A DNA stretch of 23,936 nt from a virus, in IMG/VR virus record IMGVR_UViG_3300010236_000015; one strand, 5' to 3'. Positions 1 through 20,318 of this stretch are shown in pieces (the first letter of the stretch is position 1; each line of letters opens with the position of its first letter). The notes below the pieces were generated by a model, which had not been told where the DNA came from, ran no database searches, and saw nothing but the letters and a program-made list of their open reading frames with translations. A program made the position numbers and the translations under genes.

Positions 1-1
1 C

Positions 2-256
2 GCTGGCTACGCCAATACGACGGCCTCCTACAACTCGTTCTTCGGCCAGTCCGCTGGCTCCAACAATACGACGGGCTCCTACAACTCGTTCTTCGGCCAG
101 AACGCTGGCTCCAGCAATACGGAGGGCGAAAGAAACGCATTCTTCGGCCATGCCGCTGGCGTCGCCAATACGACGGGCCACTCCAACGCGTTCTTCGGCC
201 AGAACGCTGGCTCCAACAATACGACGGGCACAAATCTTATATGTGTCGGCTACTAT
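2..256 (+). repeat. Five in-frame 51-nt (17-aa) tandem repeats
   Basis: Units begin gctggc at 2, 53, 104, 155 and 206; units 1, 2 and 5 share long near-identical stretches. Confidence 0.9.
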
Positions 257-664
257 GCGCAGGCTTCAGCCGTCGACGCAACGAACGAAGTCACGCTCGG
301 AAACAGCAGCGTAACTACCCTGCGATGCAATACGCAGACGATCACCTCCCTCTCCGACCGAAGAGATAAGACCGATATCGAGCCAATCCCGTTGGGGCTG
401 GACTTCATCCGGGATCTGAAACCGTCACGATGGATCTGGAATTGCAGAGACGGGTCCAGAGTCGGAGACGAGGATACAGGGTTTATCGCACAGGATCTCG
501 ATGATGCTCAACAGATGCACGGCTACGAGATACCCGGTCTCGTCTTCAAGCCGAATGATGATAGGTGGGAAGCAAGTTCCGGCAAATTGCTAACCGTGGC
601 AATCAAAGCGATCCAGGAACTAGCCGCGAAAGTAGACATGCTGGAGGCACAAATCGATGCTTGA
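2..664 (+). CDS. Fibre/spike protein, 5'-truncated, with 17-aa repeats and C-terminal intramolecular chaperone (peptidase S74-like)
   Basis: Frame 2 is open from base 2: AGYANTTASYNSFFGQS-type repeats, then TITSLSDRRDKTDIEPIPLGLDFIRDLKPSRWIWN (S74 cleavage/chaperone motif) and a coiled-coil tail LLTVAIKAIQELAAKVDMLEAQI. The track ORF 392-664 is only its 3' part. Confidence 0.85.
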   Translation, partial: AGYANTTASYNSFFGQSAGSNNTTGSYNSFFGQNAGSSNTEGERNAFFGHAAGVANTTGHSNAFFGQNAGSNNTTGTNLICVGYYAQASAVDATNEVTLGNSSVTTLRCNTQTITSLSDRRDKTDIEPIPLGLDFIRDLKPSRWIWNCRDGSRVGDEDTGFIAQDLDDAQQMHGYEIPGLVFKPNDDRWEASSGKLLTVAIKAIQELAAKVDMLEAQIDA

Positions 665-866
665 AATTTCCGAGAAAATCCAGATAGTGGAACAGCTTTT
701 GAAAAATTACGAAGCTGATAGGTACCGTGCGGAGCTCAATCTGGCGATCGCCGAATCGGCCGGGGTGGACGACCTGATCCAATTGCATGGCAACCAGGCG
801 GCCGTATTGAGGCAGGCAGTCGAAATATTGGCAGCCGAACTGGCCGCGATGGAGGGCAAAAAATGA
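657..866 (+). CDS. Small helical phage protein downstream of the fibre gene
   Basis: Overlaps the fibre stop; 69 aa, amphipathic helix; ATGA overlap with the next gene. Confidence 0.6.
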   Translation: MLEISEKIQIVEQLLKNYEADRYRAELNLAIAESAGVDDLIQLHGNQAAVLRQAVEILAAELAAMEGKK

Positions 867-1138
867 CCGAAATTATCACATGGGATTCGAACGACGCCGA
901 GGAAGATATCACGAAAAAACGGGTGCGGATCGAGAAGCCCATCGTCGAGAAAACGTCTCTCGCCAGGATCGATGACGAGATCGCGATGCTAGACAGGGAT
1001 ATTCAATGGGCCACCGCCCGGAAAGCGGATCTCGTTGCGAAGCGTGACCGGATTTTGGGGGCATTGGCAATCGCGCCCGAACGGGATCTGAGGGCGGAAG
1101 CCGCGGAATTGGCCCCGCCACCTGATCCAGAACTATAG
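863..1138 (+). CDS. Hypothetical coiled-coil protein
   Basis: 91 aa, translationally coupled; ends at a convergent TAG/TAG junction. Confidence 0.6.
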   Translation: MTEIITWDSNDAEEDITKKRVRIEKPIVEKTSLARIDDEIAMLDRDIQWATARKADLVAKRDRILGALAIAPERDLRAEAAELAPPPDPEL

Positions 1139-1261
1139 GCGCAGTGTCGCCCCGTCGTTCAGCGTTACGACGCCGTCCCTGGTGACGTTGTACCCGTGGC
1201 CGATGCCGAGGACGACGACCGCCTCCTCCAGGGCGAGGCCCTCGATACGATCCAGAGGGAT
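1133..1261 (-). other. 42-codon coding-like segment in frame after the TAG of the LITAF-like gene
   Basis: IPLDRIEGLALEEAVVVLGIGHGYNVTRDGVVTLNDGATLRL*; 36 of 42 codons end in G/C; no ATG/GTG/TTG start of its own (first codon ATC). Confidence 0.45.
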
Positions 1262-1474
1262 CTATGTCGCCGCCTCCCCGCTCGCCACTTTCGCCACGAC
1301 GCGACTATTCAGGTCCCGGCCGCATTCGGTGCATCGGTCCGGGGCTTTCGTCGCCCATCGGAGCACGTAGAGGCCGCCGGGCAGGAGGCCGAAGAGTGAG
1401 AGGCCGATCATCCAGCACCAGGAGAAATGCTTCCTCCCAATCGTCTTTTCTCCGCAGTGGGGACAGACGGGCAT
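1262..1474 (-). CDS. LITAF-like zinc-ribbon membrane protein
   Basis: CPHC, a hydrophobic hairpin (WMIGLSLFGLLPGGLYVL), then CTEC; TGATG-coupled to bet. Confidence 0.6.
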   Translation of the reverse strand: MPVCPHCGEKTIGRKHFSWCWMIGLSLFGLLPGGLYVLRWATKAPDRCTECGRDLNSRVVAKVASGEAAT

Positions 1475-2373
1475 CAGCTCACCACCTCGCCCTCTACATC
1501 GATGGCGTCCCGGAACTCCGACGAGTCATAGCAACCCGACAAGTCCGAGGGGAACGCCTCTCTCATCGCTTGGACGAGGGGGACCTTTCGGATCATCGTC
1601 GCTTTGTGCGTCCTCCAGGGGCCGTCTTTCCCGCTGTCGTAGTCCTTCAATGCCACCTCCGCCCTGACGGGATGATCTCTATCCTTCCGGAACACCTCCG
1701 CCCACCCGCCGAGAAGCTCCTCGTCCTTCCGGACGAATGAGCCTTCCCGATAGATCAGAGAGCCCTCGCCGTCGTCTACGATGACTCCAGCCTTGAATCC
1801 TTTGTACTGAGGGTGGAGTTCCGCCTTCCGCATGAAAGCCTCTTTTCCGACTACCATCTGAGCCTTTGCCCCGTACTTGATCAGGTATGCCTCGTTGGTG
1901 AACGGGTTAAGGTTCCTCGCCTGGCATAGCTTCAGGAACATGAAAGCCTCCTGATCGGTGGCGGCGGGACAGATATAGTCCTTGATGTCACCGAGCGATA
2001 GCTCCGCCACCTGGATATCCCGCATCGGGGCGGACCGAACGACGATCGCTTTGGGGGGCGGTGTCGCCGATGTACCCGACATGCGATACTCTTTTTTGGG
2101 CGGCGGGGAGGGCGGCGGGGAGGGCGTCTCCAAAGCTTTCCTCAGGGTCTCGATCCAGGGCCGGTCGAGCTTCGTCATTATCTCGCCCGTCTCGGCGTCT
2201 ACATAGACGTGACCCTTCCCCGGTTCGTTGATGCTGATGCAGTCGGGGAGCCCGGAGTCGTTCAGTGATCCGGTCCAGTCTTCGGGTTTGGGTTTTACAT
2301 TATCCGTCGCCAGTTCGGAGCCGTACTCTTTGTTTGCGGCTTCGATAAATGCGTCTACTTTTTTTGCTATCAT
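1474..2373 (-). CDS. bet: Phage recombination protein Bet/RecT (single-strand annealing), with N-terminal extension
   Basis: ATDQEAFMFLKLCQARNLNPFTNEAYLIKY...GKEAFMRKA...LLGGWAEVFRKDR...WRTHKATMIRKVPLVQAMREAFP. Confidence 0.85.
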   Translation of the reverse strand: MIAKKVDAFIEAANKEYGSELATDNVKPKPEDWTGSLNDSGLPDCISINEPGKGHVYVDAETGEIMTKLDRPWIETLRKALETPSPPPSPPPKKEYRMSGTSATPPPKAIVVRSAPMRDIQVAELSLGDIKDYICPAATDQEAFMFLKLCQARNLNPFTNEAYLIKYGAKAQMVVGKEAFMRKAELHPQYKGFKAGVIVDDGEGSLIYREGSFVRKDEELLGGWAEVFRKDRDHPVRAEVALKDYDSGKDGPWRTHKATMIRKVPLVQAMREAFPSDLSGCYDSSEFRDAIDVEGEVVS

Positions 2374-2374
2374 G

Positions 2375-2794
2375 TTACTCCTCCAGCTTCCGGGCGATCG
2401 TCGCCTGTGGAACCTTCGTGATCGTCACGAAGTCGGGCCGGATCGATTTTGCCGCCCGCTCGAAGTCGGTTTTTTTCAGGGACAGCAGCCCCCGGTGGCC
2501 GTGGCCGACCGCCCAGTCGATTGCCAGGATATCGTCATAGTCCACCTTTTCGACCTCCCGTATCCCGACGCCGGGCGCGGGCCTCTTGTTGCCCGTCTCC
2601 TGGAATACGGAGACTGCGGCGGCGCGGATCTTCTCCTCCATCTCGTCGACGAGGTCTCCGGCGACGGATGCCGCCAGGATCTTCCCGGCGTTCTCGTCCA
2701 TCCATGCCTCCCGGGAGGTCTTGATCTCCTCGTCGATCTCAGCCTTCTTGCGGCGGAGTTCCGCCAGCCTTTTGATATCTTCTTCCAGGGTCAT
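2375..2794 (-). CDS. Mu Gam-like / Gp157-like protein
   Basis: N-terminal coiled coil plus GVGIREVEKVDYDD..AIDWA...LLSLKKTDFERAAK; adjacent to bet. Confidence 0.45.
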   Translation of the reverse strand: MTLEEDIKRLAELRRKKAEIDEEIKTSREAWMDENAGKILAASVAGDLVDEMEEKIRAAAVSVFQETGNKRPAPGVGIREVEKVDYDDILAIDWAVGHGHRGLLSLKKTDFERAAKSIRPDFVTITKVPQATIARKLEE

Positions 2795-2931
2795 TTCTCC
2801 ACCTTCTCTATCGTCACTCTCACCACGTCCTGATTTTTGAGGCCCTGCACTTCCGCCGTGGCGGTGGGTACGTTGATGGAGAAGACTTTGCCCCCACCGC
2901 CGTATACCTTCGCCTCGAATGAGCTTTGCAT
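2791..2931 (-). CDS. Small AbrB/SpoVT-like DNA-binding protein (46 aa)
   Basis: MQSSFEAKVYGGGGKVFSINVPTATAEVQGLKNQDVVRVTIEKVEK; ATG at 2931 lies about 25 nt from the TATA box. The track ORF 2791-3201 is over-extended. Confidence 0.55.
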   Translation of the reverse strand: MQSSFEAKVYGGGGKVFSINVPTATAEVQGLKNQDVVRVTIEKVEK

Positions 2932-2942
2932 AGTTCTAGGTA

Positions 2943-2970
2943 TACCCAAAAGTATATAAGCTTTGGGGTA
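2943..2970. promoter_or_regulatory. Bidirectional TATA box inside a 10-bp inverted repeat
   Basis: tacccaaaag-TATATAAG-ctttggggta (arms 9/10 complementary); ATGs at 2931 (-) and 2983 (+) are equidistant. Confidence 0.7.
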
Positions 2971-2982
2971 GTATGGAAGGCC

Positions 2983-3261
2983 ATGGCGACATTCGAGGCG
3001 ATGAAATATCGGACGCACCGGATGCCTCACGGCGTCGGCGAGCCGATGCGAAACGCGATCGACATGATGAGCCGCCTGGCCGAGACAGAGGCCGGGGATG
3101 CAAGGACGCTGGAGGCCCTGCGGGGGCTGACCGAAGCTATGATCGGCATGATGGCCGTATTTGAAGCGATCGAGGGCACGCTCAAGGCAGAGCCGGGCCA
3201 CCCGAACTATGACGAACTCGACCGGGAATCAAGCCGCCTGTGCCGCATCCTGGGGTACTGA
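2983..3261 (+). CDS. Hypothetical helical protein (92 aa)
   Basis: ATG 2983 is 26 nt from the TATA centre; 3' part of track ORF 2926-3261. Confidence 0.6.
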   Translation: MATFEAMKYRTHRMPHGVGEPMRNAIDMMSRLAETEAGDARTLEALRGLTEAMIGMMAVFEAIEGTLKAEPGHPNYDELDRESSRLCRILGY

Positions 3262-3327
3262 AATGATATTCGACTACGACGGCCTCAAGCTGCGGCCCGT
3301 GTTCGTGGTGACGCGGGGGGATCTGTG

Positions 3328-4068
3328 ATGGTCCCGCCACCCATCACCCTCCGGATCTCGCCGAACGAAAGGGCGACGGCCCCGGAACGATTCGATCTAT
3401 GCGTCATGGAGGCGACTCGCCGGGGATTTGAGGTCGTCCCGGACGCCGGGGCCGAGGTGGATCTCGTCCTCTCCCTGGAAGATCGGACTCTCGGCATAGA
3501 TTTGAAAATGCCCCAGGATCTCATAGGAAGCCTCCAGAACGGTCATCTAGCCGAACAAAGGCGAGGATGCACCTACCCCCTCAGAATCGCCGTAATGGGC
3601 TCTCTGGGCGACGTGATGAGAGCCCTGCCAACGGTGACGGGGAAAGGCTGGCGTAATCCCAGGGAGCGGGCCCAAGCAGAGGGGATGGTCCACCGGGGGA
3701 TCGATGCCCTGCAGGCGTCGGGCGTCGAGGTAGATTTCGGGATGTCGCCTCTGGACTTCGTAAATTTCTCAGACGAGAACTCGATGGCATTCCAGCACAT
3801 CGACGACGCTCTCCGGGCCAACGTCTCGCAGGTCATGAGGCGGGCCGAGTACATCCTCAGATCGAAGATCGATCTCCCTCGCGCCCGGTGCGAGAATACT
3901 CTGGCCGCCATGTGGCAATGTTTCCCCGGAATTGGCGCCGAAAAAGCAAAGATTCTCATTTCACATGGGGTAAAGTTTGAAATCGTACCCCGTGAATTCG
4001 ATATTTCATCGATACCAGGATTCGGAAAAGCCACGGTGGAAAAAATCTTAAAGGCCCTCGACGGATGA
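3328..4068 (+). CDS. ERCC4/XPF-like structure-specific nuclease with C-terminal HhH motifs
   Basis: DLVL...GIDLKMPQDLIGSLQNGHLAEQ (ERCC4-type core, D-x-K in place of ERK); HhH motifs FPGIGAEKAKIL and IPGFGKATVEKIL. Start is GTG 3325 or ATG 3328. Confidence 0.7.
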   Translation: MVPPPITLRISPNERATAPERFDLCVMEATRRGFEVVPDAGAEVDLVLSLEDRTLGIDLKMPQDLIGSLQNGHLAEQRRGCTYPLRIAVMGSLGDVMRALPTVTGKGWRNPRERAQAEGMVHRGIDALQASGVEVDFGMSPLDFVNFSDENSMAFQHIDDALRANVSQVMRRAEYILRSKIDLPRARCENTLAAMWQCFPGIGAEKAKILISHGVKFEIVPREFDISSIPGFGKATVEKILKALDG

Positions 4069-4124
4069 GGGCTCCATTTCTCTTTTCGGGATGGATCTCG
4101 GCGAAAGCGTAGCAGTGGCGGCGG

Positions 4125-4292
4125 TCATGGGGTGGCCTCTGCCGGCATCAGGTTTTTTTCCTCCACCATCGAGATTGTCCCATCGGCCCACTTGACTCGG
4201 ACCCCTCCAGGACGACAGATGAAGAGTATCTTTACATTTTCCCAGGCCGCGAAGGTCACTCCCTGGATGTGGTGATAGACCTTGACCCGCAT
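4125..4292 (-). CDS. Small beta-rich hypothetical protein
   Basis: MRVKVYHHIQGV...VRVKWADGTISMVEEKNL; SD-like gaaggcg upstream. Confidence 0.45.
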   Translation of the reverse strand: MRVKVYHHIQGVTFAAWENVKILFICRPGGVRVKWADGTISMVEEKNLMPAEATP

Positions 4293-4314
4293 TGTGTCGC
4301 CTTCTTTCACGCCA

Positions 4315-4497
4315 TCACCTCGCGCCGGGGTCTCCGGCGCCCTTCTTCGGCGCGTCTCCCAATCTTGTGCCCCTCCCGGCGATCTCCACCAGGATCATCG
4401 CCGCCAGATTATCCCTCGCTCCTCTGGCGTTGCCCGCCGCCGCGTGGTGCTGGACGGTGGCGGCATAGGCGGCGACGAGGTTGCGGCGGGGGATCAT
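4315..4497 (-). CDS. Hypothetical protein
   Basis: ATGA-coupled to the upstream RHH gene; 60 aa. Confidence 0.4.
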   Translation of the reverse strand: MIPRRNLVAAYAATVQHHAAAGNARGARDNLAAMILVEIAGRGTRLGDAPKKGAGDPGAR

Positions 4498-4643
4498 TTC
4501 TCCTCCCTCTCCAGGCCGTCCAGGATGTACTCCCTGGCGACTTCGGACATCGGTTTCCCCTTCCCTCTCGCCACGGCCTCAAGCTCAGCCCTCGCATACG
4601 GCGTCAACTTGACGGCGACGCCATCTGTCAGTCTTTCAGACAT
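4494..4643 (-). CDS. Ribbon-helix-helix (CopG-like) regulator, 49 aa
   Basis: Not in the ORF track. Hand translation: MSERLTDGVAVKLTPYARAELEAVARGKGKPMSEVAREYILDGLEREEK; AT-rich promoter-like region upstream. Confidence 0.7.
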   Translation of the reverse strand: MSERLTDGVAVKLTPYARAELEAVARGKGKPMSEVAREYILDGLEREEK

Positions 4644-4699
4644 GCCACCATCTATCTATCTGATCATATATCTATCTTTCCCTCTATCTTAACCACAAA

Positions 4700-4894
4700 C
4701 TATTTATCATCATAGGATAAGCTTAGTCCATCGGATCGGGCGCGGCGCGATAAGCTCCCTGAAGAATCACTCCCTTCATTGCTTCGCCGTAGCTCGATTC
4801 GCGTTCGGCCTCGATGTCCATTATAAATCCATGCTGGACCAAGCTCTGATAAACACCCGTCGGGGCCGACGAACTCATAATGATGGAGCGCCAT
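4700..4894 (-). CDS. Hypothetical protein (frame ambiguous with 4723-4932)
   Basis: Good SD (aaggaggg) 6-7 nt before ATG 4894; the competing overlapping frame also looks protein-like. Confidence 0.3.
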   Translation of the reverse strand: MALHHYEFVGPDGCLSELGPAWIYNGHRGRTRIELRRSNEGSDSSGSLSRRARSDGLSLSYDDK

Positions 4895-4970
4895 AGAACG
4901 CCCTCCTTTACCTGGCGGCGCGGAGATGCCAACCGGGCCGCCTCATCTCTCTCTTTTCTTCGACCGTTAT

Positions 4971-5001
4971 CTTTATATCCTATATGGTACTATATAGTAC
5001 T
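4971..5001. promoter_or_regulatory. TATA box and 14-bp palindromic operator upstream of the csf operon
   Basis: CTTTATAT at 4971-4978, ATG at 5002; perfect palindrome GTACTATATAGTAC at 4987-5000. Confidence 0.65.
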
Positions 5002-5163
5002 ATGTCGAAAGAGTCTTTGGTACGGCTCCGGCTCGTCGAAAAGCGTATCGACGAGGTCCGGGCGAGATACGACCGGACGGGCGAGCTCTGCGATTTGGCG
5101 GCGCTCCGGGAAAGAATCAAGGAGCACCGAGCCCTCCGGGGCATCCCTTACGAGGCCCCCTGA
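5002..5163 (+). CDS. Small helical protein (53 aa), first gene of the csf operon
   Basis: Hand translation MSKESLVRLRLVEKRIDEVRARYDRTGELCDLAALRERIKEHRALRGIPYEAP; TGATG overlap with the next gene. Confidence 0.6.
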   Translation: MSKESLVRLRLVEKRIDEVRARYDRTGELCDLAALRERIKEHRALRGIPYEAP

Positions 5164-5456
5164 TGGCTGCTCCGAAGAGGCCCTATGTCTCCCCAGAGAC
5201 ACTGGAACGGCTCGCCGATCTCCGTCGCCGGATGAGCGCCACCGAGGGGCGACAGGTGACTACGGACGAGACCGTGGCCCGGCTGATCGACGCAGCCGAG
5301 GGGAAGACCACCGGCGCGGCGGAACTCTTCGCCCATCCGAAAGGGATGCAGTTCACGGTCAGCATCGGCATCCCGGAGGTGCGGATTGCCGGGGCCGCCG
5401 ATCCCGAACGGGAGGCGCGGCGGGCGATGATCGAGTGGCTGGAGGCGCAGGGATGA
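5163..5456 (+). CDS. RHH-like regulator with C-terminal extension
   Basis: PYVSPETLERLADLRRRM...TTDETVARLIDAA fits the archaeal RHH pattern; coupled to csf1 by ATGA. Confidence 0.5.
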   Translation: MAAPKRPYVSPETLERLADLRRRMSATEGRQVTTDETVARLIDAAEGKTTGAAELFAHPKGMQFTVSIGIPEVRIAGAADPEREARRAMIEWLEAQG

Positions 5457-6169
5457 ACTCGCTCCCCGAGCTCATCTGCGCCGCTCGCAACATCGTCCCG
5501 CCCGAGGGTGACCTGGCGGGCCAGTGCGTCTTTTGTGGCCGCTTCACCGAGTCCGGCCGCCCGGCGGCGATGTCGCCGGATTTCACGAACGCCCCCCAAC
5601 TTTCCGGGGGAGACGTCATCTGCCCCTACTGCCAGCACATGCAGTCGGCAGAGATCCCCGGCGCGAAACAGAGCGCGGGCAAGCTCTATCGGGCGAACAT
5701 GTGGGTAGCGAGCCTCGAAGGGATGGCCGTCGTCCGGTTCCCTCGGAAAGAGAAGGAGGGCCAGGCCGAGCGGCGCGACATGAGCGCCGTCTTCACCCTC
5801 GGCGAGATGACGCCCCGCGAGGCCCTCCTCGAACCCCCGGAGCCGCCATTCGCCATCTACCTGACGAGGACCTGGAAGAAGAGCGGCTGGCAATCAATGG
5901 TCCGGGCGGGTGGCGGCGTCTCGATGTCGAGAGCCGTCTTCCTTTGCGGCTTCGATTACGATCCTGTGATGGTGGATCGGAAGCTCCTGGCCGAGTACCT
6001 CGCCGAGATCGACGGCCTCCGGGAGCAGAAGGTCTCGAAGACGGAGCTATCCTCCGGCCAGCTGGGGATCAGGTCCCTGGAACGAATTCATTTTGATGAA
6101 AATGTAGTGAGACGGTTGCGAGATGTTGCAAGTGACCCGCTCTGGTCGCTGGCCGTCTACGTGGCCTGA
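5453..6169 (+). CDS. csf1: Type IV-B large subunit Csf1 (Cas8-like)
   Basis: CVFCG...FTN...CPYC zinc motifs and LLEPPEPPFAIYL...KK.GW; true start ATG 5453 overlaps the upstream stop. Confidence 0.8.
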   Translation: MNSLPELICAARNIVPPEGDLAGQCVFCGRFTESGRPAAMSPDFTNAPQLSGGDVICPYCQHMQSAEIPGAKQSAGKLYRANMWVASLEGMAVVRFPRKEKEGQAERRDMSAVFTLGEMTPREALLEPPEPPFAIYLTRTWKKSGWQSMVRAGGGVSMSRAVFLCGFDYDPVMVDRKLLAEYLAEIDGLREQKVSKTELSSGQLGIRSLERIHFDENVVRRLRDVASDPLWSLAVYVA

Positions 6170-6181
6170 GAAGGCGAGTCC

Positions 6182-6544
6182 ATGGACGAGATAACGACCG
6201 ATCTGATGGCCGTCCTCATGGGGGCCTATCAGACGACGAGGGTGAAACTCCCTCGGAAGAGGCTGAAGGCTGACTGGTTCGCCAGCCAGCTCAAGATAGC
6301 GAGCCGAGCGGCCACCGTTCCGGCAGCGCTGGACATCCTCAGGAAGAGGACCGATCCGGCCTGGTGGGACTTCGATCCGCTCACCGTGGCGATGTTGGAT
6401 GAGAACCATCGGGGCGAGGTGCTCAGGAGGCTCCGCCAGGAGACGATGCTCCTCGCGGCCCTGGTGGCGGCGGAAGCGCAAAAAACCAAGATGCGAAAAG
6501 GTAGCAAGAGCCTGGAATCGTTTGGAGTAGGTGAGGGAGAATGA
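6182..6544 (+). CDS. cas11: Type IV-B small subunit (Cas11-like)
   Basis: 120-aa all-helical protein between csf1 and csf2; call rests on position and composition. Confidence 0.65.
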   Translation: MDEITTDLMAVLMGAYQTTRVKLPRKRLKADWFASQLKIASRAATVPAALDILRKRTDPAWWDFDPLTVAMLDENHRGEVLRRLRQETMLLAALVAAEAQKTKMRKGSKSLESFGVGEGE

Positions 6545-7413
6545 ACGTCGAAGTTTTGGAGGGGCTGCTGCACGTCATGAGCCCCGTAGTGAGCGGATCG
6601 GACGAACACACTGGAAACCATACCGACATCCGGAGGATTACGTTCTCCGTCGATGGCGCGCCGGTTGACATCCCAGTGATCAGCGGAAACAGCATCCGAG
6701 GCCAGCTCCGGAGGTTGGTCATGGCCGACATGCTGGAGCGCGTCGGGAAGATCCCGACCGGGCTCGACCTGGCCGAGATCGAGAAGATGGCGTCTCAGTC
6801 GAAAGGGTTCGCCCGCCTCTGGCATTCGCTATGCTCCGGCGGGATGTTGGAGCAGGTCGCCGAGAAAGACTCGGGGTACGTTGATCTCGCCATGAAGAGG
6901 TCAATCAGGACGGCTCTCCCGCCCGTATCCGTCCTGGGGACGGCGATCGGGAACCAGATGATCCAGGGGAAGATTGACGTGGCAATCGCCCGCCCCTGCT
7001 GCATCGAGCTGAAAGACGGCATCCCCGAGAAGTTCCGGCTGTTCTGCAGTCAGTCGTACCGCGAACTGGAAGGGACGACCTTCGGGACGAGGAAAGACGA
7101 CCTCCACGAAGAGCGGGACGAAGGCGACGCGGCTACCCAGATGCTCTACACCTACGACTACATCTCCCCCGGAGCGAAGCTCTATCACCGGCTCACGCTC
7201 GTCAACTGCAACGATATCGAGCGGGCGGTCGTCGGGAGGATGGTCCAGCTTTGGATGGCCCGCCCCCGGATCGGGGGGAAGGCTGGCACCGGCCACGGCG
7301 AGATATCCGTCGACTACGACAGCGTCCCAGACGACGCTCCCTGGACGGCCTGGATGGACGCCAACCGGACCAAGATCCTCGATATGCTGGCGGAACTGGA
7401 GGGGGGATCCTAA
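6541..7413 (+). CDS. csf2: Type IV Cas7-family backbone protein Csf2
   Basis: IPVISGNSIRGQLRR, LCSGGML, LPPVSVLGTAIGNQMIQGKI, and a C-terminal Gly-rich loop IGGKAGTGHG. Confidence 0.9.
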   Translation: MNVEVLEGLLHVMSPVVSGSDEHTGNHTDIRRITFSVDGAPVDIPVISGNSIRGQLRRLVMADMLERVGKIPTGLDLAEIEKMASQSKGFARLWHSLCSGGMLEQVAEKDSGYVDLAMKRSIRTALPPVSVLGTAIGNQMIQGKIDVAIARPCCIELKDGIPEKFRLFCSQSYRELEGTTFGTRKDDLHEERDEGDAATQMLYTYDYISPGAKLYHRLTLVNCNDIERAVVGRMVQLWMARPRIGGKAGTGHGEISVDYDSVPDDAPWTAWMDANRTKILDMLAELEGGS

Positions 7414-8138
7414 TCCCCCCCGCTATATGGGATCGCAACCAGATTCGGAGAGCGCTGGCATCCTACCAGCCTCCCACTGATTTCGAGCCGATCGAGGTCG
7501 TCTTCCGGCTGGGGACGCCGATGATGATGGGCGATCGCTGGTATCATGGCGATGCCCTGGTCGCCGTCCAGCTGATGCACGAGATCCTCGGTGACCGGTT
7601 CCACGACCTCCCAGCCAAACAGCCCTGGCCCGTCGGCGACTGGCTCGCCCTACCGCTGAAGAAGACGGGCGACGTATACCGTTCGTCGGTCGGGCTGCTA
7701 GATAGCGATCTCCTGAAAACGACCACGATCTACAAGAGGTTCGCCGAGGACGAACGAGTCCTGCTGAGGTCGGGCCGGATCAGGAAAGGCTCGGGGAAGT
7801 TCCGGGACTTCATGATGAAGATGCCGTACTCGACCACGAAGACGGCCACCTTCCACATGAACGGTGACCTTGACGAGATCCGGCGCGTCCTGTCGACGGT
7901 ATCCCATCTCGGGAAGAAGGCGGCCATCGGCGGGGGCGAGGTCGTGGGCCTGGAGGTATCAGCGATTGATGAGGATCGGTCCCTCGTCGCCGATGGCAAG
8001 GCGGCCCGTGAGATCCCGACCAGAATGCTCAAATCCTATGATCCCTCCTATATGATGAGGAGGGCCTACAAGTTCCCATACTGGGATATCGGGAACGTGA
8101 CGGAGTGCATCGTTCCCGGCGGAGCGTGTCAGCTATGA
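7413..8138 (+). CDS. csf3: Type IV Cas5-family protein Csf3 (start codon non-canonical or uncertain)
   Basis: FEPIEVVFRLGTP...DALVA, G-loop HLGKKAAIGGGEV, C-terminal AYKFPYW; no in-frame ATG/GTG/TTG near the junction, ATC at 7413 assumed. Confidence 0.8.
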   Translation: MPPAIWDRNQIRRALASYQPPTDFEPIEVVFRLGTPMMMGDRWYHGDALVAVQLMHEILGDRFHDLPAKQPWPVGDWLALPLKKTGDVYRSSVGLLDSDLLKTTTIYKRFAEDERVLLRSGRIRKGSGKFRDFMMKMPYSTTKTATFHMNGDLDEIRRVLSTVSHLGKKAAIGGGEVVGLEVSAIDEDRSLVADGKAAREIPTRMLKSYDPSYMMRRAYKFPYWDIGNVTECIVPGGACQL

Positions 8139-8193
8139 CGGAGGTGAGACGATGGATCGGGAAGGCGGCGACAGTAAGGGAGGATGAGCGGCC

Positions 8194-8892
8194 ATGATGA
8201 CTGAATCATGGCGCTCCACTTTTTTGGCGTGGTCGGAGCTGGCTGACTACCAGGAGCGGATTGAGGAGGCCCACCGGAACATCGCCCGATCGGTGGCGTC
8301 TCGCCTGAAGGCTTATTGTAGCTACTCCGGTGGGAAGGATTCGACGGTCCTCGTCCACCTATGCCTGTCGGTCGATCCTGATATGATGGTATTCCATTGG
8401 AAGTTTAGCCCGTGGCAGCTCCCGGGGCCGATCGAGGCCGAGGTTTTGCGGAACCTCGAACGGTTGGGGGCCAAAAATAAGCTGATCGAGACATCCCCCC
8501 AGTATGCGAAATACAAGCGGTCGCTGCCGTCGGAGATATTCTACCGGTCCCTTTTCGGGCGGGTCGAGCCCGCTCTAGTGGAGGCAGGATATGATCTCTG
8601 TTTCCTGGGTCTGCGAGCCGAAGAGAGTGGGGCCCGGAAGCGGAGAACAAAAGATGGTTGGGACAAGCCCGGCAAAATTCCGACTCATCACCCCTTGAAA
8701 GACTTGAAATGGCAGGACGTTTGGGCGTACATCATATCCCATGACCTGCCTTATCTGGGATGGTATGATACGCAGGAATCATTAGGCATCGGATATAATC
8801 GGTCCCGGTTCGGGATGTTCTTCATGGCGTCGAAAGGGAACGCGGAAGTGGACGCGGTTCTACTTCCACAATATCTACATAATTGGAGGTAG
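8194..8892 (+). CDS. CysH-like (PAPS-reductase fold, adenine nucleotide alpha-hydrolase) protein of type IV-B loci
   Basis: PP-loop SYSGGKDS, LGLRAEESGARKRR, PLKDLKWQDVWAYI; lacks the C-terminal ECG(L/I)H redox motif. Confidence 0.85.
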   Translation: MMTESWRSTFLAWSELADYQERIEEAHRNIARSVASRLKAYCSYSGGKDSTVLVHLCLSVDPDMMVFHWKFSPWQLPGPIEAEVLRNLERLGAKNKLIETSPQYAKYKRSLPSEIFYRSLFGRVEPALVEAGYDLCFLGLRAEESGARKRRTKDGWDKPGKIPTHHPLKDLKWQDVWAYIISHDLPYLGWYDTQESLGIGYNRSRFGMFFMASKGNAEVDAVLLPQYLHNWR

Positions 8893-8914
8893 GCGACGCT
8901 GGACGATTTCTGAA

Positions 8915-9106
8915 ATGTGGCGCGAATCGGGCGGTCACATTTCCGGTCACATTCATCAGCGACCGGAAGTTAAAGAAGTTATTCTCAAGCTATGCAGTTA
9001 TGCCGGGGGGCTCAGGGGGCTCAACGGCGACGAAGGCTGGTATTCAAAGGGCCCAGGTGGGTCGGTCAAGCTTCGGGGCCCCGGCGACACTAGAAAAAAG
9101 AATTAG
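8915..9106 (+). CDS. Possible small hypothetical protein
   Basis: 63-aa ORF ending in a convergent TTAG stop overlap; no motif recognised. Confidence 0.3.
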   Translation: MWRESGGHISGHIHQRPEVKEVILKLCSYAGGLRGLNGDEGWYSKGPGGSVKLRGPGDTRKKN

Positions 9107-9300
9107 TCCGGGAAGTCGCGATCGATCCATTCCCGGACCTGTTGGGACAGGTTGATCCCGGCGGCTTTGATTCGCCGCCGCTGAGATGCTCGGATCATGA
9201 TTTCCGAGCGGACGAGAGGGTCGCCGTCGGGCAGCGCCTCATTCCCATGTACCCAATCCAACAGGAAAGGGAACGAACTTAGATATCCGTATTTGTCCAT
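9103..9300 (-). CDS. Small protein with RHH-like C-terminus
   Basis: SEIMIRASQRRRIKAAGINLSQQVREWID; SD gaggag upstream. Confidence 0.55.
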   Translation of the reverse strand: MDKYGYLSSFPFLLDWVHGNEALPDGDPLVRSEIMIRASQRRRIKAAGINLSQQVREWIDRDFPD

Positions 9301-9340
9301 CTTCTCTCATCTCCTCGAAAATGGGGGCTCAGGGGGGCGG

Positions 9341-9682
9341 TTAGAATGCCCCCAAGACCTCCCTATATGCCCGGTGTGCGTCCCTGGGGTCCATCCCAGA
9401 GACGTACTCGACTAGCCATTGTTCCCAGGATTCTATATCTGAGATGGGCTCGCGGTGGGTTACCGTCCCAGCATCGCGGTTCCTCGGCCCGTTCTCTTCG
9501 TCCCACTGAAAGAGACAGTCGACATCGACTGACCCTTTCGCTGCTGTTTGAATCTCCGAATATGGCCCGCTCGGGTAGCTGATCTCAGCCCAAAATCCCC
9601 CATCTCTCTCTTCAAAATTCACTATCGCGGTCTTGATGCTGCCTCTTGGCCTGTTCAATTCGATCCCTATTTGTTCCATCAT
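9341..9682 (-). CDS. Acidic hypothetical protein (113 aa)
   Basis: SD gaaggtga plus its own TATA box; about 21 D/E versus 11 K/R by hand count. Confidence 0.7.
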   Translation of the reverse strand: MMEQIGIELNRPRGSIKTAIVNFEERDGGFWAEISYPSGPYSEIQTAAKGSVDVDCLFQWDEENGPRNRDAGTVTHREPISDIESWEQWLVEYVSGMDPRDAHRAYREVLGAF

Positions 9683-9702
9683 AGTTCACCTTCACTACAT
9701 AC

Positions 9703-9724
9703 ATACGTACGTATAGTATATATA
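9703..9724. promoter_or_regulatory. Bidirectional TATATATA box with adjacent 12-bp palindrome
   Basis: ATACGTACGTAT at 9703-9714; TATATATA at 9717-9724; ATG 9747 (+) is 26 nt away and SD-led ATG 9682 (-) is 38 nt away. Confidence 0.6.
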
Positions 9725-9746
9725 GATTGCGCTCGGAGCCTCAAAA

Positions 9747-9881
9747 ATGACCACCGCAGACGACGCCCTGGTATCTCGCCTCCAGGAGATCATCGACTTT
9801 TTTGCGTCATGGCGCGATAAATGTGGCGCGATAATTGTGGCGAGAAACATGCGTTGCCACACATTCTTTTTGTGTCGTTAA
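9747..9881 (+). CDS. Small leaderless ORF (44 aa)
   Basis: Hand translation MTTADDALVSRLQEIIDFFASWRDKCGAIIVARNMRCHTFFLCR. Confidence 0.4.
   Translation: MTTADDALVSRLQEIIDFFASWRDKCGAIIVARNMRCHTFFLCR
9811..9849 (+). repeat. Three 14-bp-period direct repeats
   Basis: ggcgcgataaatgt / ggcgcgataattgt / ggcgagaaaca. Confidence 0.7.
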
Positions 9882-9912
9882 CTACTTATACTTACGATAC
9901 CATGTTAAGGGC

Positions 9913-10050
9913 ATGGAAAAGCCGTTGATTAGAGTGTCGGAGGAAAATAAGAAGCGGTTGGCCTCTTTCGGCGACGCTTCAGCGACGATGAACGATTGCC
10001 TCGGGCGGGTGCTGGATCTCGCCGAAGCGATGAGGGACGGGGGCGCGTGA
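9913..10050 (+). CDS. RHH-like regulator (45 aa)
   Basis: MEKPLIRVSEENKKRLASFGDASATMNDCLGRVLDLAE; TTATA about 25 nt upstream. Confidence 0.65.
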   Translation: MEKPLIRVSEENKKRLASFGDASATMNDCLGRVLDLAEAMRDGGA

Positions 10051-10277
10051 GGATGAGAACCCCGATATTTGTATCGTGGTTGAAATACCAGTGGCGGATG
10101 CGAAGAGCGAAGACCGTCGCCGGGGCGCTCCTCGCCGAGCTAGATTACATCAATGCACACCTCTCAAAGCTTCAGCGCCGGAAGATGGGCGACATTAACA
10201 TGATGAGGATGACCGACCTCTTCCACCGGCGGAACTTCCTGATGACGTATTTAGGCCCGTCGGATTGTGAGGAGTGA
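10047..10277 (+). CDS. Hypothetical protein
   Basis: GTGA overlaps at both ends. Confidence 0.5.
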   Translation: MRMRTPIFVSWLKYQWRMRRAKTVAGALLAELDYINAHLSKLQRRKMGDINMMRMTDLFHRRNFLMTYLGPSDCEE

Positions 10278-10810
10278 GGCACGTGCCGAGTGTATATTTA
10301 GCAGGTAAAATGTTTGTCCGGGGAACGGGCCATGATGTAGAGCCGATCCCCTGGCGCGATTTGTTCTTTAACTCGACCCCGCCGGACCTGAACTCAAATT
10401 ATCTGCCCGGCGAATATCAGAGCCCCACACACCTATCAGAATCTGAGATCGAGTACGCTGCACAGACGAAAGGGCGATACCCCATTCGTAAGAATGCAAT
10501 TGACTTACTAGCCTATACGACGAAACTGCAGGATTTCGGTCCGGCTGACAGAGTTAAATTTGATTACGTCGGCCCGTTTTTTTGGGGAAGGACTCGGATG
10601 GGGTGCTATCAGCACGGGGCGCTAATGGGGGTATGCAGGGGCGCGAAATGTGAATTTGGTATGTGGGAGCCCCACGGCGGTGGGTGCATAGGATCGTCCT
10701 CGGATTATTCATCGCCGTTTTTCGATTATTACATCGGCGAGCACTCGTCCGATCCCGCCCCGCAACGCCCTGGAGGAGTAAGCCTTGGTACTGGCGGACG
10801 ATACCATTAA
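10274..10810 (+). CDS. Nucleoside 2-deoxyribosyltransferase-like (YLAG family) protein, possibly C-terminally truncated
   Basis: N-terminal VYLAGKM...WR and YVGPFF...HG; no GTxxExG motif found. Confidence 0.35.
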   Translation: MRHVPSVYLAGKMFVRGTGHDVEPIPWRDLFFNSTPPDLNSNYLPGEYQSPTHLSESEIEYAAQTKGRYPIRKNAIDLLAYTTKLQDFGPADRVKFDYVGPFFWGRTRMGCYQHGALMGVCRGAKCEFGMWEPHGGGCIGSSSDYSSPFFDYYIGEHSSDPAPQRPGGVSLGTGGRYH

Positions 10811-12923
10811 GGCCGCCATCGAGGACGACCGATGGATCGGGTTTACGGCCTACCTCCCCCCCTGCATCGAAGGGGTCTGGGAGGAAGGGGCCATCGAAGA
10901 GACGGGGCGAACGTGCCGGCTTATAGCCCTGTATTTCAAAGGGATTATCGACGAGCTCTTCGAGGGAGAGGGGACCGCGGAGACGCCGTTCGCGTCGTGG
11001 CTTGAAGACGAGATCGGAGGAGGCACAGGGAACCTCCAGAGGTTCCTAGACTGGAACGATAGATGCAAGCACCCATTATCGAAAAAGGAGATTATAGGGA
11101 TCGTTTACCGGGTGGTAGACAGCCCCCGGACGTGTCCGACGTGCAAAGAGCTTCAATCCATTGCGGGAACGGGGATATATTGCGTTGAAGAGGACTGCAA
11201 GAGATCGGCGAAGGATAAGCAGGCACACAAAACTCAACAGATGGCTATCGTGGGGGACGAGCCGCTTACCCCCAGGGGAAACGCCGAGAGGCTTATCAGG
11301 CTCTTCGGTACGTCGATGAGGTTCAATCATACTGATGGAAAATGGTATCTTTGGAACGGATCTCTCTGGCATCCGGATGATAATGGCGGGGCGTTCCGGC
11401 GAGCGGAGGAGGTCGTGGTGGAGCTTTACCGATTCGCCGCCGAAGCGGAGGATTCTGGGAAGAGGGAACTCAGGTCATCGTGGGCTCGCCGATGCGATGG
11501 GATGGGCGGTTATCGGGAGATGTTGGAGATCGCCAAAAATAAGCACCCCATAACCTCTACAATTGAACTATTCGATCAGGACCCCTGGCTATTTACATGC
11601 CAGAACGTCACGCTAGACCTTCAGAGTGGCGTCGTGACAGAGCCGAAGCCGGGCCATTTCATCACGAAAGCGGCCAGCGTCGTTTACGACCCCGACGCGA
11701 AAGCGCCGCTATGGGATGCGTTCCTAAAAGACGTATTTCGGGACTCGTCGGGGGATCCGGACGGGGAGCTTATATCTTTCGTCCAACAGGCCGTCGGCTA
11801 TTCGCTCACCGGATCGATGGCGGAGCAGATGTTCTTTTTCTGCTATGGGGCCGGAGCCAACGGGAAGAGTGTCTTCCTGTCGGTGATCCGGGATATGATG
11901 GGCGACTATGCCCGCCAGACTGATTTTAACACCTTTTTGGTGCAGCGGAACGAATCGGTGAGGAACGACGTGGCGGCTCTGGCCGGGGCGCGGTTCGTAA
12001 CGGCCCTGGAGTCGGAGGAGGGGAAGAGGCTGGCGATGGCCCTCATCAAGGCATGGACGGGGGGCGATCCGATCACGGCGCGGTTCCTCCATCAAGAGTA
12101 CTTCACGTTCAATCCTGTCGGGAAGCTCTGGTTTGCCTCAAATACCAAGCCGATGATAACCGAGAGGAATAAGGGAGCATGGAGGCGCGTCTGCATGATT
12201 CCATTTACCGTGTCGATCCCCCCCGAGATGCAAGACCCGGACCTTGAAGATAAGCTTCTGAAAGAGCTTCCAGGCATCTTCAACTGGGCGTTAGACGGTC
12301 TAAAGAAGTACTTAGAAGTTGGTAAATTAGAGCTACCTTCCGGTGTTACGAACGCGACTAAATTGTATCGTGAGGAGTATGACTCTATAGGATCGTTTAT
12401 ACAGTCGCGGGTTAAATATGATAAAAATGCGTATATACTCGGAAAAGAATTATATTCCGCCTATGAAGAGTTCTGTGAAGAGGCCGGATACACCCCGCTA
12501 GGAAAGCGGAAGTTCAACCAAGAAATCGAGAGCGAGCCCGGTGTTATGAAATCTGACTTCCGGCATTCTATTAAGTGGATTGGCATCGAACTACTTGGTG
12601 AAACTATCGAGACTGTGAGTAATGTGAGTTATGTGAGTCGAAATCTGGGTTTTAGCTACGTGAAGGAAATTATAGGAAAAAACCTGGAAATGGACTCACA
12701 TAACTCACAAACTCACATCCAGGGTGAAATTGAGACAGTTGGCGACTTCGGGCCTCCCTCTCAGATATCCCAGATCCTAGCCGATCACATCCGGAAGGGA
12801 ACCCCGATCCGGACGAGGGACTATCCCGACATCGACGAGCTGGAGATGCTGGAGGCCCTGGATGCCGGAGGATGGACAGAGAAACGCGGCGTCTGGTGGC
12901 CGCCATCGGAGGAGACGAGATGA
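10785..12923 (+). CDS. Replication protein: PriL-CTD/PriCT-like Cys4 domain, D5_N, SF3 helicase (P4/D5 family) and winged helix
   Basis: TTG start with SD ggaggag; LPPCI...CPTC...YC...DC; Walker A YGAGANGKS; TGGDPITARFL; LWFASNTKP; WRRVCMIPF. Confidence 0.9.
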   Translation: MVLADDTIKAAIEDDRWIGFTAYLPPCIEGVWEEGAIEETGRTCRLIALYFKGIIDELFEGEGTAETPFASWLEDEIGGGTGNLQRFLDWNDRCKHPLSKKEIIGIVYRVVDSPRTCPTCKELQSIAGTGIYCVEEDCKRSAKDKQAHKTQQMAIVGDEPLTPRGNAERLIRLFGTSMRFNHTDGKWYLWNGSLWHPDDNGGAFRRAEEVVVELYRFAAEAEDSGKRELRSSWARRCDGMGGYREMLEIAKNKHPITSTIELFDQDPWLFTCQNVTLDLQSGVVTEPKPGHFITKAASVVYDPDAKAPLWDAFLKDVFRDSSGDPDGELISFVQQAVGYSLTGSMAEQMFFFCYGAGANGKSVFLSVIRDMMGDYARQTDFNTFLVQRNESVRNDVAALAGARFVTALESEEGKRLAMALIKAWTGGDPITARFLHQEYFTFNPVGKLWFASNTKPMITERNKGAWRRVCMIPFTVSIPPEMQDPDLEDKLLKELPGIFNWALDGLKKYLEVGKLELPSGVTNATKLYREEYDSIGSFIQSRVKYDKNAYILGKELYSAYEEFCEEAGYTPLGKRKFNQEIESEPGVMKSDFRHSIKWIGIELLGETIETVSNVSYVSRNLGFSYVKEIIGKNLEMDSHNSQTHIQGEIETVGDFGPPSQISQILADHIRKGTPIRTRDYPDIDELEMLEALDAGGWTEKRGVWWPPSEETR
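12614..12717. repeat. Intragenic inverted iteron cluster, candidate replication origin
   Basis: TGTGAGT three times (12614, 12623, 12632) facing ACTCACA three times (12694, 12703, 12711); 17-bp perfect inverted repeat; 53-bp spacer at about 36% GC. Confidence 0.75.
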
Positions 12924-13084
12924 AGATCATGGTAGTACTGGAAGACATCCCGGCGTTCGTCGGGCTCGATGAGAAGGTCTGGAAGCTGCGGCGGGGCGAC
13001 ATGGTGAGCGTCAACCCCGGTCTCCCTTTCAGGCAGGCAAAGATTCTGATCGACAGGGAGAAGGCCCGATGGGTAGGGCTTTAA
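12920..13084 (+). CDS. Stand-alone GINS B-domain-like miniprotein (54 aa)
   Basis: MVVLEDIPAFVGLDEKVWKLRRGDMVSV...AKILIDREKARWV matches the archaeal Gins51 C-terminal pattern as recalled; ATGA-coupled to the helicase. Confidence 0.7.
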   Translation: MKIMVVLEDIPAFVGLDEKVWKLRRGDMVSVNPGLPFRQAKILIDREKARWVGL

Positions 13085-13091
13085 GGAGACG

Positions 13092-13370
13092 ATGAAGATG
13101 GACAAATTGACCACAACGATATACAAGACCCCGAACTGCCCCAGATGCCGCGAACTGGCGGCATACTTGACCCAGCTGGGGGTCGATTTCGACGAACAGG
13201 ATATGAGCTCATCAGAGGTATTGACCGATCTCCGATGTGAGGGCGTCTTTGTGATGGAGGCCCCCGTTCTCCGGGTGGGCACGACGTATCACAATACTAA
13301 TATCCTCTGGAATGGCAACAGGCTCGCGGCCGGATATGTGGCCGGCCTCTTCGGGAGGGGGTCGGAATGA
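13092..13370 (+). CDS. Glutaredoxin/NrdH-like redoxin
   Basis: IYKTPNCPRC...GVDFDEQDM...EAPVLRVG. Confidence 0.85.
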   Translation: MKMDKLTTTIYKTPNCPRCRELAAYLTQLGVDFDEQDMSSSEVLTDLRCEGVFVMEAPVLRVGTTYHNTNILWNGNRLAAGYVAGLFGRGSE

Positions 13371-13597
13371 ACCTTTCCGACTTCGGTGTCTGCGGTACAT
13401 CCCGCGAGCCAGTTGAGCCGGTATCCGCTATCGAAATCGACGAGGTGCAACGGGGCTGGTCCCTTCGAGGGCGCGGCCTAGATATGGCCCTCGGTGACGA
13501 GAGTTACATGCGAGCGAGAGTTGCGCCCCTGGCGGCTCGTCTCGGCGTCGAGCCCGGCCTACTCCTGATCTCCCCGGCTCTGGCGAGGTGGTCATAG
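13367..13597 (+). CDS. Hypothetical protein
   Basis: ATGA-coupled to the glutaredoxin gene. Confidence 0.5.
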   Translation: MNLSDFGVCGTSREPVEPVSAIEIDEVQRGWSLRGRGLDMALGDESYMRARVAPLAARLGVEPGLLLISPALARWS

Positions 13598-13789
13598 ATG
13601 GGCGTCGTCCAAGAGATCGACGATCTCGACTTCCTCCGATCATGTCTGGGCCAAGTAGACGGATTTATAGCCAGGACGCCACCCGAAAACGTGATCGATC
13701 TGCAAGGGTGGGAAGATCACCGGAAAGATCTGATCGCCCGGATAGCCGAACTGGAGGCGCTATATGCCTATGCTACGGGGGATGAATGA
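13598..13789 (+). CDS. Small coiled-coil hypothetical protein
   Basis: SD gaggtg; HRKDLIARIAELEALY. Confidence 0.55.
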   Translation: MGVVQEIDDLDFLRSCLGQVDGFIARTPPENVIDLQGWEDHRKDLIARIAELEALYAYATGDE

Positions 13790-13813
13790 TCGCCCCGATG
13801 CTGGCGAGGTGGC

Positions 13814-14137
13814 CATGATGGCGATTATTATCGGCGAGATTTTTCTAGTCGGAATAATAATTATGATCGCTGGTATTTGGCTGGCTATCGAGCGTGGCCC
13901 GGATCGGGTGTCCGGTACCGAAGTGTGGCTGTGGCTGTGTGGAATGATATCCGGTATCGGCTTTGGCGTGCTGGTCATGATGGCGATTATTATCGGCGAG
14001 ATTTTTCTAGTCGGAATAATAATTATGATCGCTGGTATTTGGCTGGCTATTGAGCGTGGACCGGATCGGCTGTCAGATACCGAAGTTTGGCTTTGGCTAT
14101 ATGGAGTGATCTCCGGGATAGGATTGGGCGCGCTGGT
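13814..14137 (+). repeat. 162-bp tandem duplication
   Basis: 13814-13975 versus 13976-14137: first 75 nt identical, remainder diverged mostly at third codon positions. Confidence 0.95.
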
Positions 14138-14156
14138 AGCCTGGCGGTGGTGTTGA
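13815..14156 (+). CDS. Membrane protein of two tandem 54-aa two-TM units (holin-like candidate)
   Basis: SD gaggtgg before ATG 13815; four hydrophobic segments. Confidence 0.55.
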   Translation: MMAIIIGEIFLVGIIIMIAGIWLAIERGPDRVSGTEVWLWLCGMISGIGFGVLVMMAIIIGEIFLVGIIIMIAGIWLAIERGPDRLSDTEVWLWLYGVISGIGLGALVAWRWC

Positions 14157-17053: not shown

Positions 17054-17059
17054 GTCAAT

Positions 17060-20314: not shown

Positions 20315-20318
20315 AGAA

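Follow-up and report, generated by a model that had tools for sequence, protein, structure and literature searches.

An array-less type IV-B CRISPR-Cas module as apparent exchangeable cargo of a tailed archaeal virus with a predicted Methanotrichaceae host

The subtype IV-B CRISPR-Cas system on the megaplasmid of Mycobacterium sp. JS623 (7JHY; PMC7937560) consists of csf1, cas11, csf2, csf3 and a cysH-like gene, and it has no array, Cas6, adaptation genes or nuclease. Its complex, so far the only one known to do so, forms a filament of Cas7 and Cas11 on RNA (PMC7937560). Here we analyze a stretch of viral DNA of 23,936 nucleotides and about 57% G+C (IMG/VR record IMGVR_UViG_3300010236_000015; the whole stretch is hereafter the window), in which positions 5453-8892 hold the same genes in the same order, likewise without array, Cas6, adaptation genes or nuclease. 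By homology, a filament of the same kind would be expected for this module. The two systems differ in their carriers, a bacterial megaplasmid there and an archaeal tailed virus here, and their sequences are very distant; in addition, the csf3 gene of the window lacks a canonical start codon and its Csf1 carries insertions relative to its relatives.

Modules of this type have already been described on archaeal viruses. The Fuxiviridae of Bathyarchaeia carry IV-B effector genes together with a CysH-like gene (PMC10848311) and, as in the present case, a host spacer targets the viral cas cassette, in cas7 there and in csf3 here. Unlike the window, in which none was found, the Fuxiviridae possess a mini-array of two repeats and one spacer, and they differ in host phylum and virus family; the likeness is one of description only. 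The Methanoperedens virus Mp_virus_41kb_42_49_complete (bioRxiv 10.1101/2023.08.02.551345), also compared by description, has an array-less csf1-cas11-csf2-csf3-cysH module within the same archaeal class, and a counter-defence hypothesis was proposed there too. By its name that virus has 41 kilobases (kb) and 42% G+C, compared with the higher G+C of the window, and the host here is a member of the Methanotrichaceae. A bacterial origin was inferred for its Csf1 (10.1101/2023.08.02.551345), whereas the nearest Csf2 relatives of the module described here include contigs from methanogen metagenome-assembled genomes (MAGs) and viral contigs. Lastly, type IV-C (PMC13676074) also contains Cas11, and its Cas7c (11fs) is the best solved-structure sequence match of our Csf2, but in that type a Cas10-like HD large subunit replaces Csf1 and there is no CysH-like gene.

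A first-pass annotation of the window had raised the possibility that the placement of such a module on an archaeal virus was undescribed; it had already been published, both for the Fuxiviridae (PMC10848311) and for the Methanoperedens virus (10.1101/2023.08.02.551345). The present analysis adds the Methanotrichaceae host, the exact exchange of a methyltransferase for the cassette, the host type I-D spacers with the correct protospacer adjacent motif (PAM), a csf3 without start codon and the range of samples in which the cassette occurs.

Identity of the module and its relatives

The module comprises the following five genes, given with their profile matches and E values.

5453-6169, plus strand: csf1, Cas8-like large subunit, 238 amino acids (PADLOC Csf1_0_IV, 3.6e-23; TIGR03114, 8.7e-7)
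6182-6544, plus strand: cas11, small subunit, 120 amino acids, five predicted helices (PADLOC Cas11_0_IV, 1.8e-5)
6541-7413, plus strand: csf2, Cas7 backbone subunit, 290 amino acids (PADLOC Csf2_0_IV, 3.4e-58)
7413-8138 as reading frame, plus strand: csf3, Cas5, about 241 amino acids (PADLOC Csf3_0_IV, 8.8e-47, with the match beginning at 7476)
8194-8892, plus strand: cysH-like gene (CasCysH), 232 amino acids (Pfam PAPS_reduct, 9e-14)

These searches (PADLOC, TIGR03114 and Pfam) bear out the first-pass annotation, which had named the five genes in this canonical order at 5453-8892. Its csf1 start at 5453 is likewise correct, as the ATG overlaps the stop codon of an upstream 97-amino-acid gene in the form ATGA. 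An open reading frame (ORF) of 429 amino acids at 4880-6169 was considered as an N-terminally extended Csf1 and rejected; two genuine genes, read in different frames, overlap its 5' part. Matches to TIGR03114 (csf1), TIGR03115 and TIGR03116 fall under the curated cut-offs of these NCBIfam equivalogs, and the proteins are therefore divergent members of type IV.

Alignment of Csf1 with its relatives reveals a CxxC...CxxC zinc-ribbon motif, in which all four cysteines are invariant, as well as the two insertions mentioned above. For Cas11, an AlphaFold model built from 19 syntenic homologues is a five-helix bundle with a predicted local distance difference test (pLDDT) value of 82. Among 350,542 PDB chains its rank-1 match is 7jhy_g, the Cas11 of the IV-B complex 7JHY, at a template modeling (TM) score of 0.55 and with a Foldseek E value that is not significant. 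An ORF in the cas11 position is syntenic in all relatives, and Cas11 is the weakest of the five gene assignments. When searched by sequence against the PDB, Csf2 matches the type IV-C Cas7c (11fs) best, at 5.8e-11, and the Csf2 of 7JHY (7jhy_e) at 1.3e-6; the same kind of search matched no solved structure to Cas11 or to the CysH-like protein. Csf2 further carries an acidic pair, D22/E23, in an N-terminal loop.

The CysH-like protein has a PP-loop, SGGKDS, at residues 45-50 that is invariant across 14 relatives, while the C-terminal catalytic cysteine is absent and alignment reveals no cysteine conserved at the C-terminus of the relatives. The hallmark of CasCysH is that the PP-motif SGGxDS/T is kept and the catalytic C-terminal cysteine of phosphoadenosine phosphosulfate reductases is gone (PMC8175902).

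The first-pass annotation had also reported that an array, cas6, cas1/cas2 and DinG are missing from the window, and array, repeat, Rfam and family scans agree. In fact, neither a CRISPR array nor a mini-array, tRNA or Rfam family was found in the window, the contig ends of which lie within a fibre gene. Also absent from the window are cas6/Csf5, cas1/2, dinG and a Cas10-like HD subunit, and a scan of 35 further window ORFs returned no other Cas or defence families. Given the presence of Csf1, Cas11 and the CysH-like protein and the absence of DinG, Cas6 and a Cas10-like subunit, the subtype is IV-B, and this assignment stands despite a type IV-C Cas7 being the best solved-structure match of Csf2. 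We are thus all but certain that Csf1, Cas11, Csf2, Csf3 and the CysH-like protein form a genuine and intact array-less IV-B module.

The Csf2 of the window belongs to a tight clade of five members with 85-93% identity, all of them on metagenome contigs. This clade sits on a long stem within an unresolved IV-B radiation, and its next relatives are at most 47% identical when aligned (44% by BLASTP). Relatives with at least about 33% identity are all accompanied by csf3 and a cysH-like gene, and most by a recognisable csf1; some of these contigs are incomplete. One clade of the Csf2 radiation contains contigs of Methanobacteriaceae MAGs alongside viral contigs of IMG/VR; other members of the radiation are a Methanomassiliicoccales contig and short contigs binned to assorted bacteria. 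Several of the related loci have viral neighbours, namely TerL, RusA, MT-A70 and an N6_N4 methyltransferase. A bacterial origin, as the labels of the nearest Csf2 relatives would have it (Caldisericia, Synergistaceae, Patescibacteria), was not accepted; these contigs measure 3-8 kb and the labels are not trusted.

The cassette slot, its spread and the host

The early region of the window shows 75-99% nucleotide identity, in blocks, to GenBank BK063672.1, recorded as Caudoviricetes sp. vir515, a circular genome of 36.5 kb from a bioreactor with the host label Methanosarcinales. The module lies in a co-oriented run on the plus strand, composed of a 53-amino-acid ORF, the 97-amino-acid ORF, csf1, cas11, csf2, csf3 and the cysH-like gene. 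The elements flanking the module are as follows.

4972-4979, plus strand: TATA-box-like element TTTATATC, about 31 nucleotides 5' of the first ATG of the operon
5003-5163, plus strand: leading ORF of the operon, 53 amino acids from the ATG at 5003, without known family
5163-5456, plus strand: ORF of the virus backbone, 97 amino acids, its N-terminal half 67% identical to vir515_00009
8892-8911, plus strand: scar of about 20 nucleotides that marks the right border of the exchanged cassette; it matches the final codons of the vir515 methyltransferase fully or almost fully

In vir515, vir515_00009 is followed by a gene for a DNA methyltransferase, and the TTG with which this gene starts overlaps the stop codon before it; the csf1 start of the window occupies exactly that position. 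Alignment with vir515 reveals the same methyltransferase end of about 20 nucleotides after the cysH stop in two related loci, L014 and L020. The shared start overlap and the shared tail therefore indicate that the 3.44-kb module has taken the place of the 1.04-kb methyltransferase ORF, almost to the codon. On this comparison of sequences, the cassette is exchangeable cargo in what appears to be an early virus operon, the slot of which holds a DNA methyltransferase in the sister virus vir515. Beyond the cassette, L014 (Csf2 93% identical) continues with genes like vir515_00007 and 00003. TATA-box-like motifs occur only four times on the plus strand of the window; the one at 4972-4979 is a putative promoter element, and a second such motif at 4827 on the minus strand suggests a divergent promoter region.

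The same cassette is present in the independent assemblies L014 and L020. In three independent studies, of aquatic, sediment and sludge samples, Logan contigs cover 5378/5411-8903/8984 with 3-6 differences, and the stretch or part of it is held by 20 runs from 13 studies of landfill, sludge, digester, sediment and wastewater. A chimeric join, against which the first-pass annotation had asked the block to be checked, is effectively excluded by these independent contigs; the contigs of three studies as well as L014 and L020 span the cassette, which is not an assembly artefact. The Logan contigs break at the cassette borders, and in run X3 the cassette has a depth of 118 compared with flank depths of 150-890. 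Breaks and lower depth of this kind would be expected from a mixed virus population in which some members carry the cassette and others do not. Two joints were also seen in single runs: in X3, one contig runs from 4815 on to 9876, with 5 additional letters at the joint and 30 letters on the shorter side, and in X7 a weaker joint links 5456 to 8892 with 22 letters on the shorter side. These joints hint that variants without the entire accessory region, or without just the cassette, co-exist.

Ratios of nonsynonymous to synonymous substitution (dN/dS, Nei-Gojobori), calculated against L020 and a further locus, L019, lie between 0.04 and 0.20 in all five genes, and the module is therefore maintained by purifying selection and not a remnant. 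The cassette is also a mosaic. In L019, Csf2 is 85% identical to that of the window but the CysH-like protein just 35%, which means that the accessory enzyme has been swapped independently of the Csf genes. The CysH-like protein of L019 (L019:2193-2915) resembles that of a clade of Methanobacteriaceae viruses. Just 3' of the cassette and far from the helicase gene of the window, 139 nucleotides at 8950-9088 share 93% identity with the initial codons of the vir515 primase gene; this piece has the appearance of a scar left by recombination, and the region around it, 8892-10785, is mosaic.

Host genomes were searched first across the order Methanosarcinales (284 genomes) and then across the class of a Methanolobus MAG (108 more, 392 in total). 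In the order-wide search, window positions 1-20000 gave only short imperfect matches, none of them in an array. The DNA search of the class genomes led to a CRISPR array in genome G315, two spacers of which match csf3.

7543-7577, minus strand: protospacer of spacer 12 of the Methanotrichaceae type I-D array, matched at 35 of 35 positions
7568-7601, minus strand: overlapping protospacer of spacer 70 of the same array, matched at 30 of 34 positions

Both protospacers lie on one strand and each is preceded by a 5'-GTG PAM, which fits the type I-D PAM 5'-GTN-3' (PMC10212523). The array has 85 repeats, the 37-nucleotide repeat ending at its 3' side in ATTGAAAC, and it lies directly 3' of cas6-cas10d-cas7d-cas5d-cas3d-cas4-cas1, a complete type I-D system. 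None of its other 82 spacers matches the window or vir515. The McrA of G315 shares 91% identity with a protein of Methanocrinis sp. and 85% with a protein of a Methanotrichaceae MAG. DNA relatives of the structural and replication modules of the virus cluster outside the order Methanosarcinales: of the class genomes, 22 of the 108 not in that order contain them, compared with 1 of 284 inside it. The spacer matches with their PAM, the McrA of G315 and the distribution of backbone relatives thus point to the same lineage: judged from these genomic matches, the host lineage is Methanotrichaceae, acetate-eating methanogens. The first-pass annotation had expected a virus of a CRISPR-bearing methanogen and had recommended host assignment through spacers; spacers 12 and 70 supply that assignment, and the type I-D system with its 85-repeat array is in keeping with the expectation. 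Homologues of Csf2 are rare in host genomes of the class, as the window Csf2 used as query found them in 2 of the 392. A 7-kb contig in a Methanosarcinia-class bin (L078, on G323:C103) has 69-73% DNA identity to about 15100-21970, that is, terL and the head genes downstream, and is a related virus or provirus.

Four further genes of the virus describe the carrier.

1474-2373, minus strand: RecT
10785-12923: D5-type primase-helicase
15731-17053: TerL (Terminase_6N and 6C; phrog_7579, 3.5e-51)
18530-20314: Mu-F-like head morphogenesis protein

Profiles did not identify the major capsid and portal proteins in the window. By its gene content and its similarity to vir515, the carrier is a tailed archaeal virus (Caudoviricetes) related to vir515. 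Both ends of the window (1-255 and 23838-23935) lie in 51-nucleotide (17-amino-acid) repeats of a fibre gene, which has an S74 chaperone domain at 2-664. The contig probably represents a circle that was almost complete and was broken at these repeats; a small virus of about 24 kb, nearly closed, is plausible. We also note a glutaredoxin-like ORF of 92 amino acids in the replication region (13092-13370; Pfam Glutaredoxin, 1.6e-5). About 20% of the helicase (10785-12923) is 90% identical to P0120-P0134, proteins of 668 amino acids with HTH_3 and PF27228 on contigs of up to 36 kb; this suggests that the common segment is a domain shuffled among related viruses.

The csf2/csf3 junction

Between the csf2 stop codon (TAA, 7411-7413) and an ATG at 7521, csf3 contains no ATG, GTG or TTG. 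The N-termini of Csf3 relatives, with the first RAMP strand, can be aligned to the 36 codons at 7413-7520, and these codons have a dN/dS of 0.15-0.20. The junction itself combines several elements.

7398-7420, plus strand: csf2/csf3 junction with a Shine-Dalgarno-like GGAGG, a G_GGG_GGA heptamer, the TAA stop codon and an 8-base-pair hairpin GGGGGGAU/AUCCCCCC

A -1 slip on the heptamer would lead the csf2 frame into the csf3 frame. The hairpin has a G/C stem of 8 base pairs and contains the csf2 stop codon in its loop. The junction is kept in L014, L020 and L019, and two substitutions in L019 retain the pairing of the hairpin via wobble. The fold of the junction is not significantly more stable than that of shuffled sequences (z = -1.55). 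In another member of the Csf2 clade, the contig that encodes P0006, the called csf3 has 242 amino acids and overlaps the csf2 stop by 4 nucleotides, a length that would correspond to a start at window position 7410, where a start codon may be presumed for that contig. Among the best 150 of 494 Csf3 relatives (drawn from 1.84 billion representatives) there is no natural Csf2-Csf3 fusion, and these relatives therefore lend no support to the idea of a fusion by frameshifting. It is possible that csf3 is made (I) by non-AUG initiation or re-initiation at AUC 7413 or (II) by a -1 frameshift that yields a Csf2-Csf3 fusion.

Possible functions of the module

The reading that we put forward, tentatively and aware that it may well be wrong, is early-expressed counter-defence by an RNA-binding Csf filament and a CysH-like PP-loop enzyme. 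The four Csf proteins would assemble a Cas7/Cas11 filament as in the Mycobacterium IV-B complex, and they would do so on small RNAs other than CRISPR guides encoded by the virus; the best candidates are CRISPR RNAs (crRNAs) of the host or other small RNAs from the host or from rivals. Together with the CysH-like enzyme, which would use ATP, the filament would blunt RNA-guided defence of the host, and it would be expressed early, like the methyltransferase that it replaces. The JS623 complex assembles on heterogeneous non-CRISPR RNA, and a role as RNA sponge has been proposed for it (PMC7937560). We note that the functions listed by the first-pass annotation, namely crRNA sequestration, guided action on competitors and targeting of the CysH-like enzyme, are hypotheses already in the literature (PMC7937560, PMC8175902).

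Several points weigh against counter-defence. The JS623 complex showed no preference for co-expressed crRNAs (PMC7937560, PMC8175902), so that specific sequestration of crRNAs is unproven for any IV-B system. The slot held in common with a methyltransferase is guilt by position only. In Csf2, the D22/E23 pair may be the counterpart of the putative catalytic Asp42 of JS623 Csf2, and it may leave room for an active role in RNA cleavage or targeting. Both spacers of the G315 array match the cassette and nothing else in the virus; consequently, the G315 lineage may have encountered the cassette on some other carrier. Among the sequencing runs that hold the stretch, none is on record as RNA, and run X17 ('RNA-Seq cDNA') contains only divergent contigs and is possibly DNA. 

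As an alternative to counter-defence, the module could be a guided weapon, which we consider unlikely but deserving of serious attention. The Csf complex would load host crRNAs, for example from the I-D array with its ATTGAAAC handle, or a viral RNA that has escaped recognition, and would then bind to matching DNA or RNA from rival viruses or plasmids. The CysH-like enzyme would serve as its effector, with superinfection exclusion or a conflict among mobile elements as the result. Such a role was proposed by the authors of the Fuxivirus study for their IV-B system (PMC10848311), but that system bears a mini-array, whereas the window has no array, mini-array or Cas6. Type IV-A systems are reported to work in plasmid competition without a nuclease; here, neither a nuclease nor a helicase partner is present. 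Selection on Csf3 (Cas5) and Csf1 is what one would expect if a specific RNA handle and target were recognised, and many related virus variants share the same samples, but the failure of the JS623 complex to load co-expressed crRNAs (PMC7937560) speaks against guided action as well.

We regard it as improbable that the module modifies nucleic acids. In this reading the filament would be a scaffold that binds RNA and recruits the PP-loop ATPase CasCysH to a nucleic acid, which CasCysH would adenylate or otherwise modify for protection akin to that given by the replaced methyltransferase. The exact replacement of one gene by the cassette in a single operon slot is in line with this idea, but a common position is weak evidence. 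Similarly, the invariant SGGKDS and the loss of the sulfonucleotide-reducing cysteine, as in CasCysH generally (PMC8175902), would suit a modifying enzyme, and the exchange of the cysH-like gene in L019 (35% identity, with Csf2 at 85%) looks as if it were the effector that bears specificity; however, a biochemical activity is known for no CasCysH. A complex prediction for Csf1, Csf3 and the CysH-like protein reached a score of 0.48, which a control equalled, and it counts neither for nor against an interaction.

A bolder and somewhat less probable version of the modification idea adds the csf3 junction. In this version the IV-B module would be interchangeable in function with a DNA methyltransferase: the RNA-based Csf scaffold would aim CasCysH at nucleic acid, ATP-dependent modification would shield the virus from restriction or CRISPR, and csf3 would be made by recoding at the G_GGG_GGA/TAA hairpin junction, through either -1 frameshift fusion or non-AUG re-initiation. 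If csf3 is indeed produced by recoding or re-initiation, the low Cas5:Cas7 ratio of the complex would be fixed thereby.

That the cassette is a passive or decaying passenger without current function for the virus is very improbable: the missing csf3 start codon, the co-existing cassette-free variants with a cassette depth of 118 against flanks of 150-890 in X3 and the weakly supported joints across the region would fit such hitch-hiking, but all frames are intact, dN/dS is 0.04-0.20 in every gene and low even in the start-less N-terminus of csf3, copies that are nearly identical come from three studies and the stretch, whole or in part, from 13, and the csf2/csf3 junction is kept in members that differ by 15% in the Csf2 protein.

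To our knowledge, type IV-B is the one widespread CRISPR-Cas subtype without known function. The example described here leaves existing knowledge unchanged, and what the cassette offers is an unusually clean natural experiment. Sister viruses use one operon slot either for the IV-B cassette or for a methyltransferase; the lineage of the host has been identified, and spacers that target the cassette are found in the type I-D system of this lineage. Moreover, digesters and landfills, in which acetoclastic methane production is driven by Methanotrichaceae, contain the cassette in abundance. In sum, the slot of the sister viruses, the known host spacers and this abundance make the hypotheses of counter-defence, competition and modification directly comparable.

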